Of a DNA stretch of 26,907 nt, positions 11,266-26,907 are shown piece after piece. Both the position numbers and the translations under genes were made by a program. The DNA is from a virus (lineage: Duplodnaviria; Heunggongvirae; Uroviricota; Caudoviricetes). The stretch is taken from IMG/VR virus record IMGVR_UViG_2778261676_000004. One strand, 5' to 3'. How positions within the stretch are numbered: position 1 is the stretch's first letter; each line of letters starts with the position of its first letter. Under the pieces are notes generated by a model. That model was not told the origin of the DNA. It saw only the letters and a list, made by a program, of their open reading frames with translations, and did no database searches.

Positions 11266-12519
11266 ATGTCAAAAAATCTCCCGGTTTTATTAAGCTCGCC
11301 ATCAACAACTAATTTTCCTGCAACAGTTAATACTGAAATAGAATTCCTTTCGCAAGCTAGAAAGTTGTTAGATTCTGGCTTCCCTGATCATGCTCTTTTA
11401 GATATATGGAATGCATCCATTCATAATCTTAGGCGGCGAATTGAGGCTTATGGTTTAGACTTATTCCTTTCCGCAATAAAGGATGATAGTGGTCGTAAAA
11501 AATATGATAAAGATGGTGAAACAATAAACGAGAGATGGTCAGGTGTAGATGATTTAGTGCTAATAAGTGGAGCCACCAAATTAGGGGTTCTGCATAAGAA
11601 AGCTGGAAAATCATTAGAAATGATCAATTGGATGAGAAACCATGCCTCTCCAGCCCATGCAAGTGATAGTAAAGTAGAGTCTGAGGATGTGTTTGCTTTG
11701 GCTCTTATGCTCCAGAAGAATTTATTCGAATCTGATATGCCAGACCCTGGACATTCGCCATCTGGATTATTTGAACCCATAAAAAAATCTGAACTATCAA
11801 TTGAGAGCATAGACTTACTTAAAGATCAAATAAGAGCATTTAAGCAAGCTGATATAAGAATAACATTTGGATTTTTATTGGATTTAATAACTAAGGGGGA
11901 AAATCCTGCTTATGTTAATGCTAGCAAGTTGTTTGAACAAGCATGGGAAAGATCTAATGATGACCTTAAAAAAACAGCGGGGGAAAGATATCACTCATTT
12001 ATGCTGGAGCCCGAATCGGATACAAGTGAGGATAAAGGAGCAAAAATAAGAATTTTAGAGACTTTAGTAAAAGTTAATGGTGTGAAATTTATACCTGATG
12101 CTGCTAGGGCAAGTTTATACAGACATGCGGTTAAACAGCTAGCTAAAGCTAAGGATACATCTTACGGCTGGAATGATGAAGAAAGAGCAGCCAAGGCACT
12201 TATACAATTTGGACCTCATGTTCCATCTATTGCTTTTGAAGATGTATATCAAGAAATACTTACTGTTTGGGTGGGGAATTACTGGGGAAGATCTGATGCA
12301 CATTTAGTACTTCAACCATTTTTAGATGTGTTAAATAGTAATCAATTGATGGCTCTCTCACGGTTGTTCGTGGAGAATGAAAGAGCAAATTCAGAACTGG
12401 TGTCATCAAGGCCCAAAAGAAGAGCAATAGAATTACTTGAGATAATAAAAAATAATCTAACAATTCAAGCAAGCATTGATGAAATTGATAGGATCATTTC
12501 TGAAATTGATAAAATGTAA
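11266..12519 (+). CDS. Hypothetical protein, cargo gene B (no family recognised; possible HEPN-like R-x6-H motif)
   Basis: 417 aa; ATG 11266 with AGGA upstream; AT-rich; motif WMRNHASPAH (nt 11635-11658) fits the HEPN R-x(4-6)-H pattern, but this is a weak single-motif match. Confidence 0.85.
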   Translation: MSKNLPVLLSSPSTTNFPATVNTEIEFLSQARKLLDSGFPDHALLDIWNASIHNLRRRIEAYGLDLFLSAIKDDSGRKKYDKDGETINERWSGVDDLVLISGATKLGVLHKKAGKSLEMINWMRNHASPAHASDSKVESEDVFALALMLQKNLFESDMPDPGHSPSGLFEPIKKSELSIESIDLLKDQIRAFKQADIRITFGFLLDLITKGENPAYVNASKLFEQAWERSNDDLKKTAGERYHSFMLEPESDTSEDKGAKIRILETLVKVNGVKFIPDAARASLYRHAVKQLAKAKDTSYGWNDEERAAKALIQFGPHVPSIAFEDVYQEILTVWVGNYWGRSDAHLVLQPFLDVLNSNQLMALSRLFVENERANSELVSSRPKRRAIELLEIIKNNLTIQASIDEIDRIISEIDKM

Positions 12520-13152
12520 TTTATTTGCAATTAAGCCATGCTTTTTAGGTGGCTTATTTTTTTTGAATCTACTACTTATATTGATATTAGCAATGTAATT
12601 GCTAAAGTATTCCTAGCCCACTATTCATCTAAATATGGTTGTCGAAAGGCCCGCTTCTCGCTCAAAGCGGACTAGAAGGTTAGCTTGCGTCGGACTTGGC
12701 GTATTTAAAGAAGTGCTGGTGGTGACTGGTTGTTGTGTTCCATTTCTACAGAACAAAATCACAGAAACTATACCCAATAGTTGTATCTCATCAATGATGA
12801 GACAGCCTCATATTTATCAGGACTGGTGTACGTCCAATACAGGAGGTTGTCGTGCTGGTTCTCAAATGTGCGCTGGCTATTGCAGCTGTAATGGCAATTT
12901 ATTGTCTTGCTGTTGTTCTTATGGATCGCCTTTCTGATTGATTTTATATTGGCGAGGTAACGGGAGTTAAGTAGAATGGCTGCGGGTGCTTGAGGCTATC
13001 TGTCTCAGGCATGAACACCAAAGGCAGATAGAGAAAAGCCCCAGTTAACATTACGCGTCCTGCAAGACGCTTAACATTAATCTGAGGCTCAATCTATGAA
13101 CGGCAAATCTAGGTTAGCCTCTTACGTGCCGAAAGGCAAGGAGAAGCAGGCT

Positions 13153-13308
13153 ATGAAGCAGCAAAAGGCGATGTTAATCGCCCTGATCGTCATCTGTTTA
13201 ACCGTCATAGTGACGGCACTGGTAACGAGGAAAGACCTCTGCGAGGTACGAATCCGAACCGGCCAGACGGAGGTTGCTGTCTTCGTGGACTACGAATCTG
13301 AGAAGTAA
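13153..13308 (+). CDS. Hok/Gef-family membrane toxin (type I toxin-antitoxin)
   Basis: 51 aa MKQQKAMLIALIVICLTVIVTALVTRKDLCEVRIRTGQTEVAVFVDYESEK, very close to my recollection of Gef/HokC; RBS AAGGAGAAG; in-frame upstream extension from 13096; 9-bp stem-loop GGCGGGAGA/TCTCCCGCC at 13318-13339 and a T8 run at 13391-13398 downstream. Confidence 0.8.
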   Translation: MKQQKAMLIALIVICLTVIVTALVTRKDLCEVRIRTGQTEVAVFVDYESEK

Positions 13309-13534
13309 GAGTGACCAGGCGGGAGAGTAATCTCCCGCCACCTCTGATGTGTCGGCATCCTCAACGCACCCGCGCTTAACCCTCTTGGCGTTTTTTTTGC
13401 TTTCAGATAATAAATTTACCAAAATGGTTTACAAAATCATTTTTTATGGTAATTTATTAGTCATGAAGTCTTCATCACAGGTTGTGCTTCGAAAATAGGC
13501 AGCCTGTTACTTATAGCGAATCGAGGAATTAACT

Positions 13535-13894
13535 ATGGCACTCACTGAATTCGGTAAGGCCGTTAGAAAAGCGAGGATAGATACCGACTGCACATTGCTT
13601 ACGATGGCCCAAGAACTGGGAGTAACTTCAGCTTTTCTGAGCGGTTTAGAAACAGGCAGTAAGAAAATCCCCAAAAAATGGGTAAAAGAGATTCAGGCTT
13701 TTTTCCTGAAAAGAGGTTATGAGATTAATAATCTTCAGGAATTGGCTGATGTATCTAATCAGTTTGTTTCCCTTGATGGATTGTCGCAAAATCAGCAAAT
13801 GTTGGTTGCTGGTTTTGCTAAATCCCCATTAACACCAGAGCAGTTAAAGCGAATAGCAGAGTTGATGAAAAGTATTAATCATGTTGAGGGATGA
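13535..13894 (+). CDS. HTH XRE-family transcriptional regulator
   Basis: 119 aa; N-terminal HTH-like TLLTMAQELGVTSAFLSGLETG; ATG with GAGGA RBS; stop immediately before the metallopeptidase gene. Confidence 0.8.
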   Translation: MALTEFGKAVRKARIDTDCTLLTMAQELGVTSAFLSGLETGSKKIPKKWVKEIQAFFLKRGYEINNLQELADVSNQFVSLDGLSQNQQMLVAGFAKSPLTPEQLKRIAELMKSINHVEG

Positions 13895-13897
13895 TCG

Positions 13898-14380
13898 TTG
13901 GAACAATCAGCTTACACATTACGTGGAAATCGTGTTGCACCAATGAGTATTGTTGATATAACAACTCGCGCTGTTAACTATAGCGCGATCTTCGACCTTA
14001 AAACGTTGAAAAGAAAAAAGCGGTTAGACCATGCATTTGAGTTGTTGAGTGAATATGGGATAACGCTCAATATCGTTGAGGATCGTGCGTGGACTAAAGC
14101 TACATATGATTTGACATCTGGGCATTACGATCCAATTACACTTACAATTAGTGTGCCGAATCATACATTTGAGTTGGCATGTAAAGGTGATAGAGAAGCA
14201 TTATTTGTGCTCTTTCATGAAATCGGACATTTGGTGTTGGGGCATAGAGCGTTATTTCACAGTTCCAATAAACCACCTTCGCAAATTGAAGATGCTGAAT
14301 GGCAAGCAGATTTGTTTGCTGAGGTGGTTTTGCGCGAATTAGGATTTTATATGGATCAACTATCATTTGACTTTTTATAA
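13898..14380 (+). CDS. ImmA/IrrE-family zinc metallopeptidase (HEXXH)
   Basis: 160 aa; HEIGHLVLGH contains the HEXXH zinc-binding motif; apparent TTG start 4 nt after the upstream stop, alternative ATG at 13943. Confidence 0.8.
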   Translation: MEQSAYTLRGNRVAPMSIVDITTRAVNYSAIFDLKTLKRKKRLDHAFELLSEYGITLNIVEDRAWTKATYDLTSGHYDPITLTISVPNHTFELACKGDREALFVLFHEIGHLVLGHRALFHSSNKPPSQIEDAEWQADLFAEVVLRELGFYMDQLSFDFL

Positions 14381-14403
14381 AAAAGCCCTGCTGTAACAGG
14401 GCT
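14376..14403 (-). terminator. Hairpin with a T-run on the minus strand (terminator for a leftward transcript, or bidirectional)
   Basis: AGCCCTG / CAGGGCT stem with loop CTGTAA; the A-run on plus (14370-14383) is a T-run on the minus strand. Confidence 0.4.
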
Positions 14404-14543
14404 TAGGATGGAAAGTCCGATAACTTTCCAGTGCAGATGGAGAACCCCACCGCCACACTTGGATTTGACAGATGCAAGTTTAGCGGTTCTCCCAACAAAT
14501 CGCAACCTGTATGGGGATACAGGTATGCAGGGACTTGCTTGTT

Positions 14544-14684
14544 ATGGCAATGAAAATCTGTAAGGAATGCGGAAAACCGTGCGAAATTATTTTTCGTTAT
14601 TCCGTTTGTATCAATGGAGTTATGCGATATGCGAGGAAGGGGCACCCTTTCCCGATTCCTGTTTGTGGTTGCTCCCGAACGTAG
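14544..14684 (+). CDS. Candidate small Cys-rich protein (46 aa)
   Basis: Hand-read ORF MAMKICKECGKPCEIIFRYSVCINGVMRYARKGHPFPIPVCGCSRT; C-x2-C ... C-x-C pattern suggests a zinc ribbon; no strong RBS; lies between two terminators. Confidence 0.25.
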   Translation: MAMKICKECGKPCEIIFRYSVCINGVMRYARKGHPFPIPVCGCSRT

Positions 14685-14705
14685 AGTTGCATAATGATCT
14701 AATCT

Positions 14706-14733
14706 AAACCCGCTTCGGCGGGTTTTTTGTTTT
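14706..14733 (+). terminator. Rho-independent terminator with TTCG tetraloop
   Basis: AAACCCGC TTCG GCGGGTTT followed by TTTTGTTTT. Confidence 0.75.
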
Positions 14734-14803
14734 ACGTATTCTGGTTTACAATCCACAGGCCAGCCTGAACAACTGGCACCTGCTGCGCCAGCAGAGACAA
14801 CCG

Positions 14804-15082
14804 ATGGCGCACGATACCAAATTACACAATTCTAATGATTCTGCTGTCTTTGCCAGCAGGTGCGGACGGCGTTTTCACGCATTCAAATCAGACTGGTTCC
14901 AGCATCCTCCATGCACTGAAGAGCAGGCTGAATGGATAATTCAGTGTTACCGCAGGCGTGGATACGAGGTTAAGAAAGCTCTTAGTCTCGACTATCGTCA
15001 CTGGATAATCTCAGTCAGACTCCCTTACTCCGAACGCCCACCGCGTCCGTCCCGCACATTCCAGCAACGGATCTGGAGGTAA
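14804..15082 (+). CDS. Hypothetical nin-region protein
   Basis: 92-aa ORF; stop at 15080-15082 directly before the GTG start of the next gene; weak RBS. Confidence 0.55.
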   Translation: MAHDTKLHNSNDSAVFASRCGRRFHAFKSDWFQHPPCTEEQAEWIIQCYRRRGYEVKKALSLDYRHWIISVRLPYSERPPRPSRTFQQRIWR

Positions 15083-16145: not shown

Positions 16146-16517
16146 ATGGGGATAGAATTTGTTTTGCCTTACCCGCCAACGGTGAACACCTACTGGCGAC
16201 GTCGTGGCAGCACATATTTTGTATCAAAAGCCGGTGAGCGTTATCGCCGTGATGTGGCGCTTATTGTTCGCCAGCAGCGACTGAAATTAAACCTGTCCGG
16301 AAGGCTGGCAATAAAAATTATTGCAGAGCCACCGGATAAGCGCCGCCGCGACCTGGACAATATCCTGAAGGCACCACTGGATGCGCTGACGCATGCCGGA
16401 CTACTTATAGACGACGAGCAGTTTGATGAAATCAATATTGTGCGCGGACTGCCTGTTCCTGGTGGGCGGTTGGGCGTGAAGATTTACGAAATTACAGGTG
16501 ATAACGATGGTGCGTGA
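16146..16517 (+). CDS. rusA: RusA-family Holliday junction resolvase
   Basis: 123 aa; [21 protein letters not shown] ... [26 protein letters not shown] is the RusA signature as I recall it; RBS AAGAGG. Confidence 0.9.
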
Positions 16518-16893
16518 TATTCAGCAGGTTATGGAGCGGTGGGGAGCATGGGCTGCGAACAATCACGAAGATGTGTCATGGGCGTCAATCGCTGCTGGTT
16601 TTAAAGGATTAATCCCGCCGAAAGTGAAATCACGCCCTCAGTGTTCTGATGATGATGCAATGATAATTTGTGGCTGTATGGCCCGGTTGAACAAGAAAAA
16701 TCAGGATTTGCACGATTTGTTGGTGGATTATTACGTAGGTGGAATGACTTTTATGGGGTTGGCACGAAAGCATGGGTGTTCGGATACCTGTATTGGCAAG
16801 CGCCTGCAGAAAGCGGAAGGGGTTATTGATGGCATGTTGATGATGCTTGATATCCGACTGGAGATGGACAGATACGTAGAACGAATCATGTAG
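16507..16893 (+). CDS. Late-gene antiterminator Q (QuuD-like)
   Basis: [36 protein letters not shown]...[14 protein letters not shown] closely matches my recollection of E. coli DLP12 QuuD; overlaps the rusA 3' end by 11 nt. Confidence 0.85.
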
Positions 16894-16897
16894 GAGC

Positions 16898-16927
16898 TTG
16901 ACCAGACACATTGTCCGGGGCTATATT
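16898..16927 (+). promoter_or_regulatory. Candidate late promoter (PR'-like) just downstream of Q
   Basis: TTGACC (16898-16903), 18-bp spacer, TATATT (16922-16927); followed by a structured leader and a hairpin terminator. Confidence 0.35.
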
Positions 16928-16987
16928 CCTCACGCGCCAGCAAAATCTGGCGTCGGGATTGGCGTCCCGGATGAAAAAGGCGACAAC

Positions 16988-17010
16988 AGACGCGCCAGCG
17001 TCTTTTTTAT
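16988..17010 (+). terminator. Leader terminator (tR'-like) downstream of the candidate late promoter
   Basis: AGACGC GCCA GCGTCT followed by TTTTTTAT. Confidence 0.55.
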
Positions 17011-17166
17011 TGTCGTTTGCACTGTCACATCTCAATGGTGGGCTGTGTGGGGGCGGAGCGATCCGCGCCGGTTCCTTTTTCCCGGTTACGCCAACCCTGC
17101 ACAGTTCACCACCATACTGATTGGCGTCAGCAGTGGTGATGATTCACATAGAAAAAGGATCATCCT

Positions 17167-26326: not shown

Positions 26327-26907
26327 TGGCATTCAGAATGAGTGAACAACCACGGACCATAAAAATTTATAATCTGCTGGCCGGAACTAATGAATTTATT
26401 GGTGAAGGTGACGCATATATTCCGCCTCATACCGGTCTGCCTGCAAACAGTACCGATATTGCACCGCCAGATATTCCGGCTGGCTTTGTGGCTGTTTTCA
26501 ACAGTGATGAGGCATCGTGGCATCTCGTTGAAGACCATCGGGGTAAAACCGTCTATGACGTGGCTTCCGGCGACGCGTTATTTATTTCTGAACTCGGTCC
26601 GTTACCGGAAAATTTTACCTGGTTATCGCCGGGAGGGGAATATCAGAAGTGGAACGGCACAGCCTGGGTGAAGGATACGGAAGCAGAAAAACTGTTCCGG
26701 ATCCGGGAGGCGGAAGAAACAAAAAACAACCTGATGCAGGTAGCCAGTGAGCATATTGCGCCGCTTCAGGATGCTGCAGATCTGGAAATTGCAACGGAGG
26801 AAGAAACCTCGTTGCTGGAAGCCTGGAAGAAGTATCGGGTATTGCTGAACCGTGTTGATACATCAACTGCACCTGATATTGAGTGGCCGACTTCACCTGC
26901 AGAGTAA
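26326..26907 (+). CDS. tfa: Tail fibre assembly protein Tfa
   Basis: [54 protein letters not shown] matches lambda Tfa as recalled; start overlaps the stf stop (ATAATGG); stop at 26905-26907. Confidence 0.9.

Follow-up and report, generated by a model that had tools for sequence, protein, structure and literature searches.

The stretch of DNA analysed here (the window, 26,907 nt) is a lambdoid prophage of Escherichia coli with 100% identity over the query to strain BCE049 (NZ_CP042250), and its positions 14379-14733 are one compact portable cassette, the left border of which is exactly a hairpin, H1. The cassette carries a gene for a 46-residue Cys-rich protein behind a conserved structured leader RNA, is closed by an intrinsic terminator at each border, and is linked, across gamma-proteobacterial prophages, to operons that encode helix-turn-helix (HTH) proteins. 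On balance we lean towards the reading in which the cassette, made up of leader, ribosome-binding site, small gene, terminator and a candidate cis-antisense RNA, would serve as the output of the HTH operon and as the third component of Xre-COG2856 modules, the pairs of an XRE-family regulator gene and an ImmA-like protease gene that precede it in most loci.

Results

A conserved structured leader RNA

An earlier note on the letters of the window had described the region as strongly structured, and folding of the plus-strand RNA 14381-14735 bore this out, with a minimum free energy of -123.3 kcal/mol against -97.2±5.0 for shuffled sequences (z = -5.24) and with helices that are conserved through compensatory changes. 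What had been described as many stem-loops is really one conserved 5' leader, part of the portable cassette, which consists of the hairpins H1, H2 and P4 and of a long-range helix, P3 (14439-14446/14485-14492), that the note had missed (Table 1). Repeat and terminator scans recovered the hairpins proposed at 14409-14430, in minus orientation at 14384-14403, and as a plus-strand terminator with a TTCG loop at 14706-14733; a further hairpin, placed at 14499-14520, exists about 5 nt from that position, at 14505-14524.

Leaders were compared in two alignments, one of 44 distinct leaders and a second of 30, among them sequences from Proteus, Alteromonas, Yersinia and two unassigned lineages. RNAalifold recovered all four helices, and in a structure-blind MAFFT alignment of the 30 leaders 91.4% of cells paired, compared with 31-47% when the partners were slid. 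Pairs changed on both sides numbered 13 against 5.1±1.6 in shuffles, the covariation score was 0.157 against 0.04-0.06 for slid partners, and none of 500 shuffles reached any observed measure. H1, whose arms in the window are a perfect 8-nt inverted repeat (14383-14390/14397-14404), was detected in 58 of 60 unique units with compensatory changes at three of its eight pairs, and H2 has changed on both sides at six of eight pairs, with G.U pairs tolerated. P3 is composed of three segments, in which GGAG(AACC), CCGC, ACACUU pair with AAGU, GCGG, (GGUU)CUCC around a variable apical loop; its 3' strand resembles an anti-Shine-Dalgarno sequence, and its pair 88-121 of alignment A5 is found as AU (14), GC (12) and GU (3). 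Compensatory and G.U changes across the aligned leaders were likewise seen in P4. By this covariation, the approximately 160 nt upstream of the small open reading frame (ORF) are a conserved structured RNA with four covarying helices. Because G.U pairs outnumber A.C pairs in P3 (35:17) and P4 (19:4), these two helices belong to the plus strand, which is the strand of the ORF.

The Rfam covariance search that the earlier note had suggested was run and gave no match at gathering score in 14381-14760, and none that was real at E values up to 10 on both strands; sub-threshold matches to rsmX (26.1 bits against 56), Trp-leader and isrK are driven by the terminators alone. Two other readings of the leader were set aside. 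A conserved upstream ORF starting from the invariant ATGGAG (14437) is incompatible with a 2-nt indel that shifts the frame between variants, and a plus-strand sigma-70 promoter using the conserved T[TA]GACA of the P3 loop has no -10 element at 16-18 nt.

A small gene under purifying selection

The region had been described as non-coding with a candidate Cys-rich ORF of 46 aa inside it (14544-14684); the candidate is present and is a real gene, and 40% of the stretch is coding. Across 37 distinct homologous coding sequences, the third codon position was variable at 41 of 44 codons and the second at 11 of 44, and the ratio of nonsynonymous to synonymous polymorphism (pN/pS) was 0.16 in the frame of the ORF and 1.4-1.5 in the other two sense frames. 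All six Cys residues are invariant in this set of close relatives, the ATG is invariant across variants, and in four variants a stop codon stands immediately 5' of the MAM start. Every variant has a Shine-Dalgarno (SD) sequence, AGGGA or AGGAG, 6-10 nt 5' of the ATG, which in distant relatives is AGGAG at 6-7 nt. Judged by these patterns of variation, ORF 14544-14684 is a genuine gene on which purifying selection acts strongly.

The 117-aa ORF on the opposite strand, considered probably not coding in the earlier note, was rejected as a gene: pN/pS in the same-codon antisense frame is 1.36, and within the 44-codon overlap with the small ORF stops interrupt the minus frame in 7 of 39 variants. 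In other loci with listed ORFs the minus ORF is shorter (60-83 aa), and annotating the 117-aa ORF amounts to a mis-annotation.

A word-indexed protein search with the 46-aa query found no relative, and the family emerged only by an exhaustive HMMER search followed by a profile search, which gave 31 proteins of 44-61 aa with Yersinia, Proteus, Vibrio parahaemolyticus, Alteromonas and Ursidibacter among the named sources. None of the 31 has a Pfam domain, and the family, whose members are basic, Cys-rich and 44-52 aa long, is also without an NCBIfam or PDB match. Residues C6, C9, C13, F17, G25, F36, I38 and C43 are invariant across this wider family, and G10, P39 and C41 nearly so. A back-translated scan gave 59 IMG/VR loci and one Lelliottia genome, and relatives of the stretch, at ~73% identity in a second E. 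coli lineage and at 78% in a Klebsiella prophage, lie among other genes. RefSeq carries no annotation at the small ORF in any of the ~55 full-unit carriers among 5426 complete E. coli genomes. Carrier strains include E. coli STEC005 and O39 F8704-2 and, in Proteus, CP023273. Gene callers have also produced erroneous products here. In Klebsiella phage ST13-OXA48phi12.4 (L003, 2498-2686) the leader is spanned by a called 62-aa 'hypothetical protein', and elsewhere (proteins P0001 and P0009) products of 86 and 109 aa join the small protein to a reading frame of the leader; these leader-fused ORFs are mis-annotations.

The small protein of the window is basic, with eight Lys or Arg against two Asp or Glu residues, and an AlphaFold2 model built with the alignment (predicted local distance difference test score 83.7) is all-beta with five strands. 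Its best sequence and fold matches are weak ones to zinc ribbons such as Nop10, Rpb9 and RpoM. From these features the protein is probably zinc-binding, with a zinc-ribbon fold, and its size, charge and Cys pattern suggest a zinc ribbon that binds nucleic acid or the ribosome. The codons of the M27-R31 region contain a perfect tandem duplication, TATGCGA TATGCGA (14621-14634), which is confined to the window variant.

Outward-facing terminators and a candidate cis-antisense RNA

The two terminators had been called convergent; both are present and conserved in all relatives, and their orientation is outward. The minus-oriented one marks the left edge and the plus-oriented one the right, so that they close two transcripts running from an overlapping centre. 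The tail of the minus terminator at H1 starts TTTT and comprises six U in all, including two in the stem, against two U on the plus strand of the window. Of 58 units, 40 have a longer U-run at H1 on the minus than on the plus strand, 17 have runs of equal length, and in one the minus-strand run is the shorter. On the other side, inspection by eye found a GC-rich hairpin with a T-run 10-30 nt after the stop codon of the small ORF in every variant listed.

A pattern resembling a sigma-70 promoter is conserved on the minus strand of the leader. The spacing TTGCnn-17-TAnnnT was found in 30 of 30 aligned leaders and is in place in all 58 unique units with H1, and the invariant bases (TTG; T-12, A-11, T-7) are those that weigh most for sigma-70. 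Two of them (plus-strand A14482 and A14504) stay unpaired when the plus strand folds. In the promoter scan the Proteus version, TTGCAA-17-TACAAT, reaches a passing 9/12, and in a diverged Vibrio leader examined by eye the GGTTCTCC strand of P3 is lost, with TTGCGT-18-TAATCT and a minus-oriented H1-like terminator kept. From the promoter-like element and the H1 terminator we infer a cis-antisense RNA of ~93 nt; the minus-strand RNA 14376-14473 folds with z = -4.24 relative to shuffles. The covariation of P3 cannot be attributed to this predicted RNA, because it lacks the complement of the P3 3' strand, and both strands therefore seem to carry function. Another minus-strand promoter, flagged by the scan within the small ORF (14614->14586, codons E14-N24) and weakened to 4+4 matches in most variants, was set aside.

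H1 and H2 share a variable loop

The loops of H1 and H2, 28-32 nt apart, are identical in 51 of 58 unique units, in which the stems differ. The shared loop varies between variants (CGCTAA, CTCTAA, CTAGGA(A), CTTCGAA, CTGCAAA, CTGAGAA, TTGGCA and TTGACG), and both loops change together; at least nine different loop sequences occur. The window itself (CTGTAA against CCGATA) and Alteromonas are among the exceptions to identity. That two distinct hairpins should be constrained to a single variable loop is an unusual evolutionary signature, which points to a specific molecular partner.

No complement to the twin loops was found within ±3 kb of 14 loci, the opposite strand itself aside, and the window holds 6-7-mers complementary to the loops at chance level only. 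The small protein, the XRE protein and the ImmA-like protein were each considered as the partner and rejected, loop type being uncoupled from all three (L002 compared with L004 for the small protein; L003 compared with L004 for XRE/ImmA); it is also uncoupled from the upstream context. A boxA/NusB-like reading of UGCGCUAACA/UGCUCUAACA, CsrA-type GGA loops and anticodon-loop mimicry (Y-U-NNN-R-A) each fit some of the loop variants only and were likewise set aside.

Spread and linkage to HTH operons

The small-protein family occurs in Escherichia, Klebsiella, Yersinia, Proteus, Vibrio and Alteromonas, and the cassette is linked to HTH operons: the operon upstream nearly always encodes an HTH protein, and in most loci it consists of XRE and an ImmA-like protease. 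In Proteus, Alteromonas, Yersinia and two unassigned loci an HTH gene (116-143 aa) and an M78-like gene (157-163 aa) are followed by a gap of 170-177 nt and the small ORF, the Proteus module lying between icd/attL and int. In Vibrio parahaemolyticus (L064-L067, 3093-3644) the gap after the ImmA-like gene is ~407 nt and two tandem, diverged paralogous small ORFs follow, the first of which has CxxCK and NNCGK variants; the leader at these loci is longer (~190 nt) and different. There are two further upstream contexts. In one, an operon for proteins of 253 aa, 215 aa (HTH) and 304 aa ends in the cassette; in the other, HicA, HicB and a 146/158-aa protein precede it and a convergent integrase gene follows. 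These two contexts are represented by L038, L036, L042, L054 and L061 (about 470-2770) and by L047, L049 and L052. The scan of the proteins from these operons, which did not extend to the HicA-like ORF, gave no family of Pfam or PADLOC besides HicB and a weak HTH match, and both operons may be uncharacterised toxin-antitoxin (TA) or defence modules.

In the window, the 119-aa XRE protein matches Pfam HTH_3 at E=8.9e-4 (19.7 bits, under the gathering score of 23) and, in PADLOC, HTH_VI at 1.4e-6 with a weak capH match at 1.9e-3. The 160-aa ImmA-like protein matches Pfam Peptidase_M78 at E=1.9e-4 (21.7 bits against a cut-off of 22) and the metallo-protease family phrog_87 at 1.7e-15, and has weak matches to the defence models capP (4.3e-4), RmrA (5.8e-4) and Lit (9e-3). 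PADLOC-DB v2 gave no significant defence-system match for the module components and no credible match for the small protein. By its sequence features, an XRE gene next to a gene of HExxH M78 type, the pair falls within the definition of an Xre-COG2856 pair, and the RefSeq names agree. Upstream of the XRE gene, inspection by eye picked out an imperfect palindrome, ATAATAAATTTACCA ... TGGTAATTTATTA (13407-13459), which is perhaps an XRE operator; it was absent from the output of the repeat search (seed 7, minimum length 10).

When different contexts are compared, homology sets in at the A-run of H1, 3-10 nt past the point where the upstream gene stops, and beyond the plus terminator the sequences again differ between variants (rem, dinI, a convergent integrase gene and others). 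A scan with the DNA pattern of the leader found the small ORF in all 47 evaluable matches. The plus terminator with the flank upstream of rem (14706-14810) occurs in ~2000 of the 5426 complete E. coli genomes, mostly without the cassette and at up to six places per genome, which places the cassette at a recombination joint of the backbone. Mosaics were found as well: L003 and L004 have their leader type in common and differ in XRE/ImmA types, and L002 and L004 have a nearly identical small protein and differ in the 5' halves of their leaders. The cassette thus recombines both as a unit and within itself.

Discussion

In the reading that we favour, a signal such as stress or infection would cause the ImmA-like protease to inactivate the XRE repressor, by analogy with ImmR/ImmA, DdrO/IrrE and CapH/CapP, and the de-repressed operon would be read through past H1 to yield the small protein as its last cistron. 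Neither the cassette nor the sequence before it has a conserved plus-strand promoter, and H1 terminates poorly on the plus strand; the small ORF is therefore probably the last cistron of an HTH-regulated operon. The antisense RNA would set a threshold, with small protein made once its mRNA exceeds the antisense RNA. Mechanistically, the antisense RNA may pair with the 5' half of the leader, open P3 and free the CUCC 3' strand to occlude the ribosome-binding site; alternatively, the antisense:leader duplex may be a substrate of RNase III. P3 pairs an SD-like GGAG (14439-14442) with CUCC (14489-14492), and when the P3 5' strand was left out of the folding, the freed GGUUCUCC strand paired with the SD region in four of five variants folded; these models suggest a P3/SD switch. 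The small protein would be the output of the module, whether effector, toxin or regulator.

Several observations weigh against this scheme. The candidate antisense promoter of the window reaches 8/12 and escaped the promoter scan, and the promoter-like bases sit in conserved RNA (the P3 3' strand and the P3-P4 linker), where their invariance could be due to structure or to protein binding. The strand test that assigns P3 and P4 does not discriminate for H1 (0 G.U to 3 A.C) or H2 (14:10). The alternative fold of the window uses a different pairing, which also covers the SD-to-ATG spacer, and the SD-occluding folds do not surpass shuffles (z -0.7 to -2.7). Most type I toxins are hydrophobic, and the small protein is not. 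Context-specific plus-strand promoters are possible in the upstream gene (ATGACA-18-GATAAT in L038; 14119-14148 in the window), and expression may therefore not depend on the XRE-controlled promoter. Finally, the cis-antisense model leaves the identity of the H1 and H2 loops unexplained: a cis-antisense pair does not need it and the encoded candidates are uncoupled from loop type, so that some other partner or constraint is implied. Candidates for that constraint are a dimeric RNA-binding factor, redundant kissing contacts, and a specificity code between co-resident cassettes.

The last of these candidates can be combined with the favoured scheme into a hybrid module, in which a type-II-like sensor pair (XRE and ImmA, or another HTH operon) would drive a type-I-like, antisense-guarded zinc-ribbon effector of ~48 aa, with the twin loops acting as a specificity code against cross-talk from co-resident cassettes or incoming phage. 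We offer this more elaborate form as a possible but speculative one.

A rather unlikely alternative is that the leader is a protein-bound cis-regulatory element with no antisense RNA, in which H1 and H2 would be equal sites for a dimeric RNA-binding factor (compare the two loops bound by CsrA, or boxB and phage N) that controls translation or stability, the promoter-like bases being kept as RNA. The co-varying and identical loops on differing stems, 28-32 nt apart, would be expected of such sites, the only complementary RNA within ±3 kb would come from the opposite strand, and the small protein is very basic, like small RNA-binding zinc ribbons, so that autoregulation is conceivable. Against this, loop type follows neither the small protein nor XRE/ImmA nor context, so that no encoded partner co-varies with it, and a host factor of fixed specificity could not fit at least nine loop sequences. 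It would also go unexplained that H1 terminates better in minus orientation and that the 17-nt spacing between TTGC and TAnnnT is exact in all units.

It is quite unlikely that the cassette is an autonomous type I TA locus that hitch-hikes behind operons, with the small protein as toxin, the antisense RNA as antitoxin and no tie to XRE/ImmA. Such a locus would account for an ORF of less than 50 aa behind a long structured 5' untranslated region (UTR), an antisense promoter inside that UTR and terminators at both borders, as well as for recombination of the cassette independently of its neighbours (L003/L004; three upstream contexts). The cassette of the window also adjoins hok/sok, and the corresponding backbone position in the Qin prophage of K-12 is occupied by relBE-hokD. 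An autonomous locus does not fit the lack of a conserved plus-strand promoter, the start of homology at H1, or a protein that is basic and soluble-looking rather than a membrane peptide. In addition, every distant lineage sampled has an HTH and M78 neighbour, with the gap fixed at 170-177 nt in most, and functional coupling is therefore favoured over chance adjacency.

Recognition of H1 and H2 at the level of DNA, for example as the end of a small mobile element or as a recombination site, is very improbable. The homology border lies exactly at H1 in unrelated contexts, the pairs of H1 are all Watson-Crick and equally good as DNA, and the twin loops are direct repeats of 6-10 bp embedded in palindromes; yet neither a transposase or recombinase nor a matching hairpin was found at the right end, no target duplication came to light, G.U pairs are tolerated in H2, and the rest of the leader behaves as RNA. 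That the region is an ordinary spacer, with H1 as a bidirectional terminator of the ImmA operon, 14706-14733 as a backbone terminator, incidental hairpins and a spurious ORF, is hardly tenable, for although the plus terminator and rem flank are common without the cassette (about 2000 of 5426 genomes), RefSeq annotates nothing and Rfam has no match, this is contradicted by the codon-position pattern, the pN/pS of 0.16, compensatory changes in four helices, retention of leader and ORF across Enterobacterales, Vibrio and Alteromonas, the two U that follow the H1 stem on the plus strand of the window, and identities of 60-80% among homologous loci, which exclude a single recent clone.

Relation to known systems

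Type I TA loci (hok/sok, tisB/istR-1, zor/orz, symE/symR), to which the cassette would come closest in its way of working, resemble it in their tiny ORF, long structured 5' UTR and prophage location, and in a candidate antisense gene with its own terminator inside the UTR. They differ in that the cassette protein is basic, Cys-rich and predicted to be all-beta, that a conserved sense promoter is missing and that the antisense RNA is here a candidate; no Rfam or sequence relation links the cassette to the known type I families. Xre-COG2856 modules, such as ImmR/ImmA of ICEBs1, DdrO/IrrE and CapH/CapP, have in common with the loci described here the adjacent XRE HTH gene and the ~160-aa HExxH M78-like gene, in a prophage. 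Such pairs have been predicted to control an unknown third component, as three-component TA systems (Makarova et al. 2009, PMC2701414). The partner in the present case is a zinc-ribbon-like protein of 46-49 aa behind an RNA leader, and not RelE, PIN or a large defence operon; the pair matches CapH/CapP, RmrA and Lit weakly (E 1e-3 to 1e-2), and the cassette also follows the HicAB and 253/HTH215/304 operons.

The C4 antisense RNA of phages P1/P7 (a1b1/a2b2) offers a parallel to the twin loops, in that short boxes recur within a single transcript and differ from one related phage to the next, as a specificity code. Here, however, the repeated boxes are loops of adjacent hairpins, a separate complement RNA is missing within ±3 kb, and neither the sequence nor Rfam shows any similarity. 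Com of phage Mu, Nop10 and ribosomal proteins of the L37e type come to mind as well, the protein being small and basic, with Cys knuckles (CxxCG ... CxC), and encoded beside a structured RNA. The combination, the protein family, the RNA motif and the twin loops were found in none of Pfam, NCBIfam, PADLOC, Rfam, PDB and the open-access literature, and open-access literature on COG2856/Xre and on ImmA with a small protein and an antisense RNA gave no description of the cassette.

Few gene pairs of phages and mobile elements are as abundant as the Xre-COG2856 pairs, and the targets of many of these have been open since 2009. The cassette is a concrete candidate for the missing output in a whole group of these pairs, and brings with it a protein family that annotation pipelines nearly always miss, an RNA motif outside Rfam and a candidate antisense RNA.

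Further features of the window

Coordinates of the cassette and of its surroundings are collected in Table 1. Within the sok/hok locus lies a 70-aa mok/hok-type ORF with a HokD-like peptide at its end.

Table 1. Features of the cassette and its neighbourhood in the window
Feature	Position	Strand	Evidence and remarks
sok/hok	12984-13308	+	Rfam sok, 110 bits, complete sok RNA; immediately 5' of the XRE and ImmA genes
XRE-family HTH gene, 119 aa, first gene of the module	13535-13894	+	ORF list; RefSeq 'helix-turn-helix domain-containing protein'
ImmA/IrrE-like gene (COG2856, peptidase M78), 160 aa, HEIGH motif	13898-14380	+	sequence contains LFHEIGHLVLGH
H1 hairpin AAGCCCTG-CTGTAA-CAGGGCTT	14379-14404	- (terminator); also first helix of the + leader	A-run precedes on +
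Minus intrinsic terminator at H1	14404->14383	-	terminator scan; tail TTTTATAAAA after counted stem
Predicted cis-antisense RNA, ~93 nt	14471->14379	-	candidate promoter to H1 terminator; complementary to H1, H2, P3 5' strand and apical loop
117-aa ORF (rejected as a gene)	14403-14756	-	ORF list; reads exact antisense of the small ORF's codons
H2 hairpin TGGAAAGT-CCGATA-ACTTTCCA	14409-14430	+	perfect 8-nt arms 14409-14416/14423-14430
P3 long-range helix	14439-14492	+	perfect 8-nt pair GGAGAACC/GGTTCTCC, 14439-14446/14485-14492
Candidate sigma-70 promoter	14477-14505	-	conserved pattern; -35 TTGCGA (14505->14500), 17-nt spacer, -10 TAAACT (14482->14477)
P4 hairpin ACCTGTAT-GGGG-ATACAGGT	14505-14524	+	directly 5' of the ribosome-binding site; arms 14505-14512/14517-14524
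Shine-Dalgarno-like GCAGGGA	14527-14533	+	sequence and alignments; 10 nt before ATG
Small protein gene, 46 aa, basic, Cys-rich, MAMKICKECGKPCEIIFRYSVCINGVMRYARKGHPFPIPVCGCSRT	14544-14684	+	codon-position pattern, pN/pS, homologues
Plus intrinsic terminator AAACCCGC-TTCG-GCGGGTTT + TTTGTTTT	14706-14733	+	terminator scan; arms 14706-14713/14718-14725; right border of the cassette
rem-like gene	14804-15082	+	downstream of the cassette; then DUF968, rusA, Q-like antiterminator
c4-a1b1	16921-16973		Rfam
isrK	16934-17008		Rfam, 79 bits
C4 antisense RNA	17031-17116		Rfam, 74 bits

The C4/isrK entries of Table 1 form a P1/P7-type C4 immunity RNA cluster inside the lambdoid prophage, directly after the Q-like gene (16498-16893) and 2.2 kb downstream of the cassette. 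Just upstream of sok/hok, a 417-aa ORF (11266-12519) has no Pfam or PADLOC match and is possibly a moron or a defence candidate; in the AT-rich stretch that follows it no ORF exceeds 100 aa. Rfam IS009 is matched over its full length (225 bits) at 26669-26867, close to the right end of the window.

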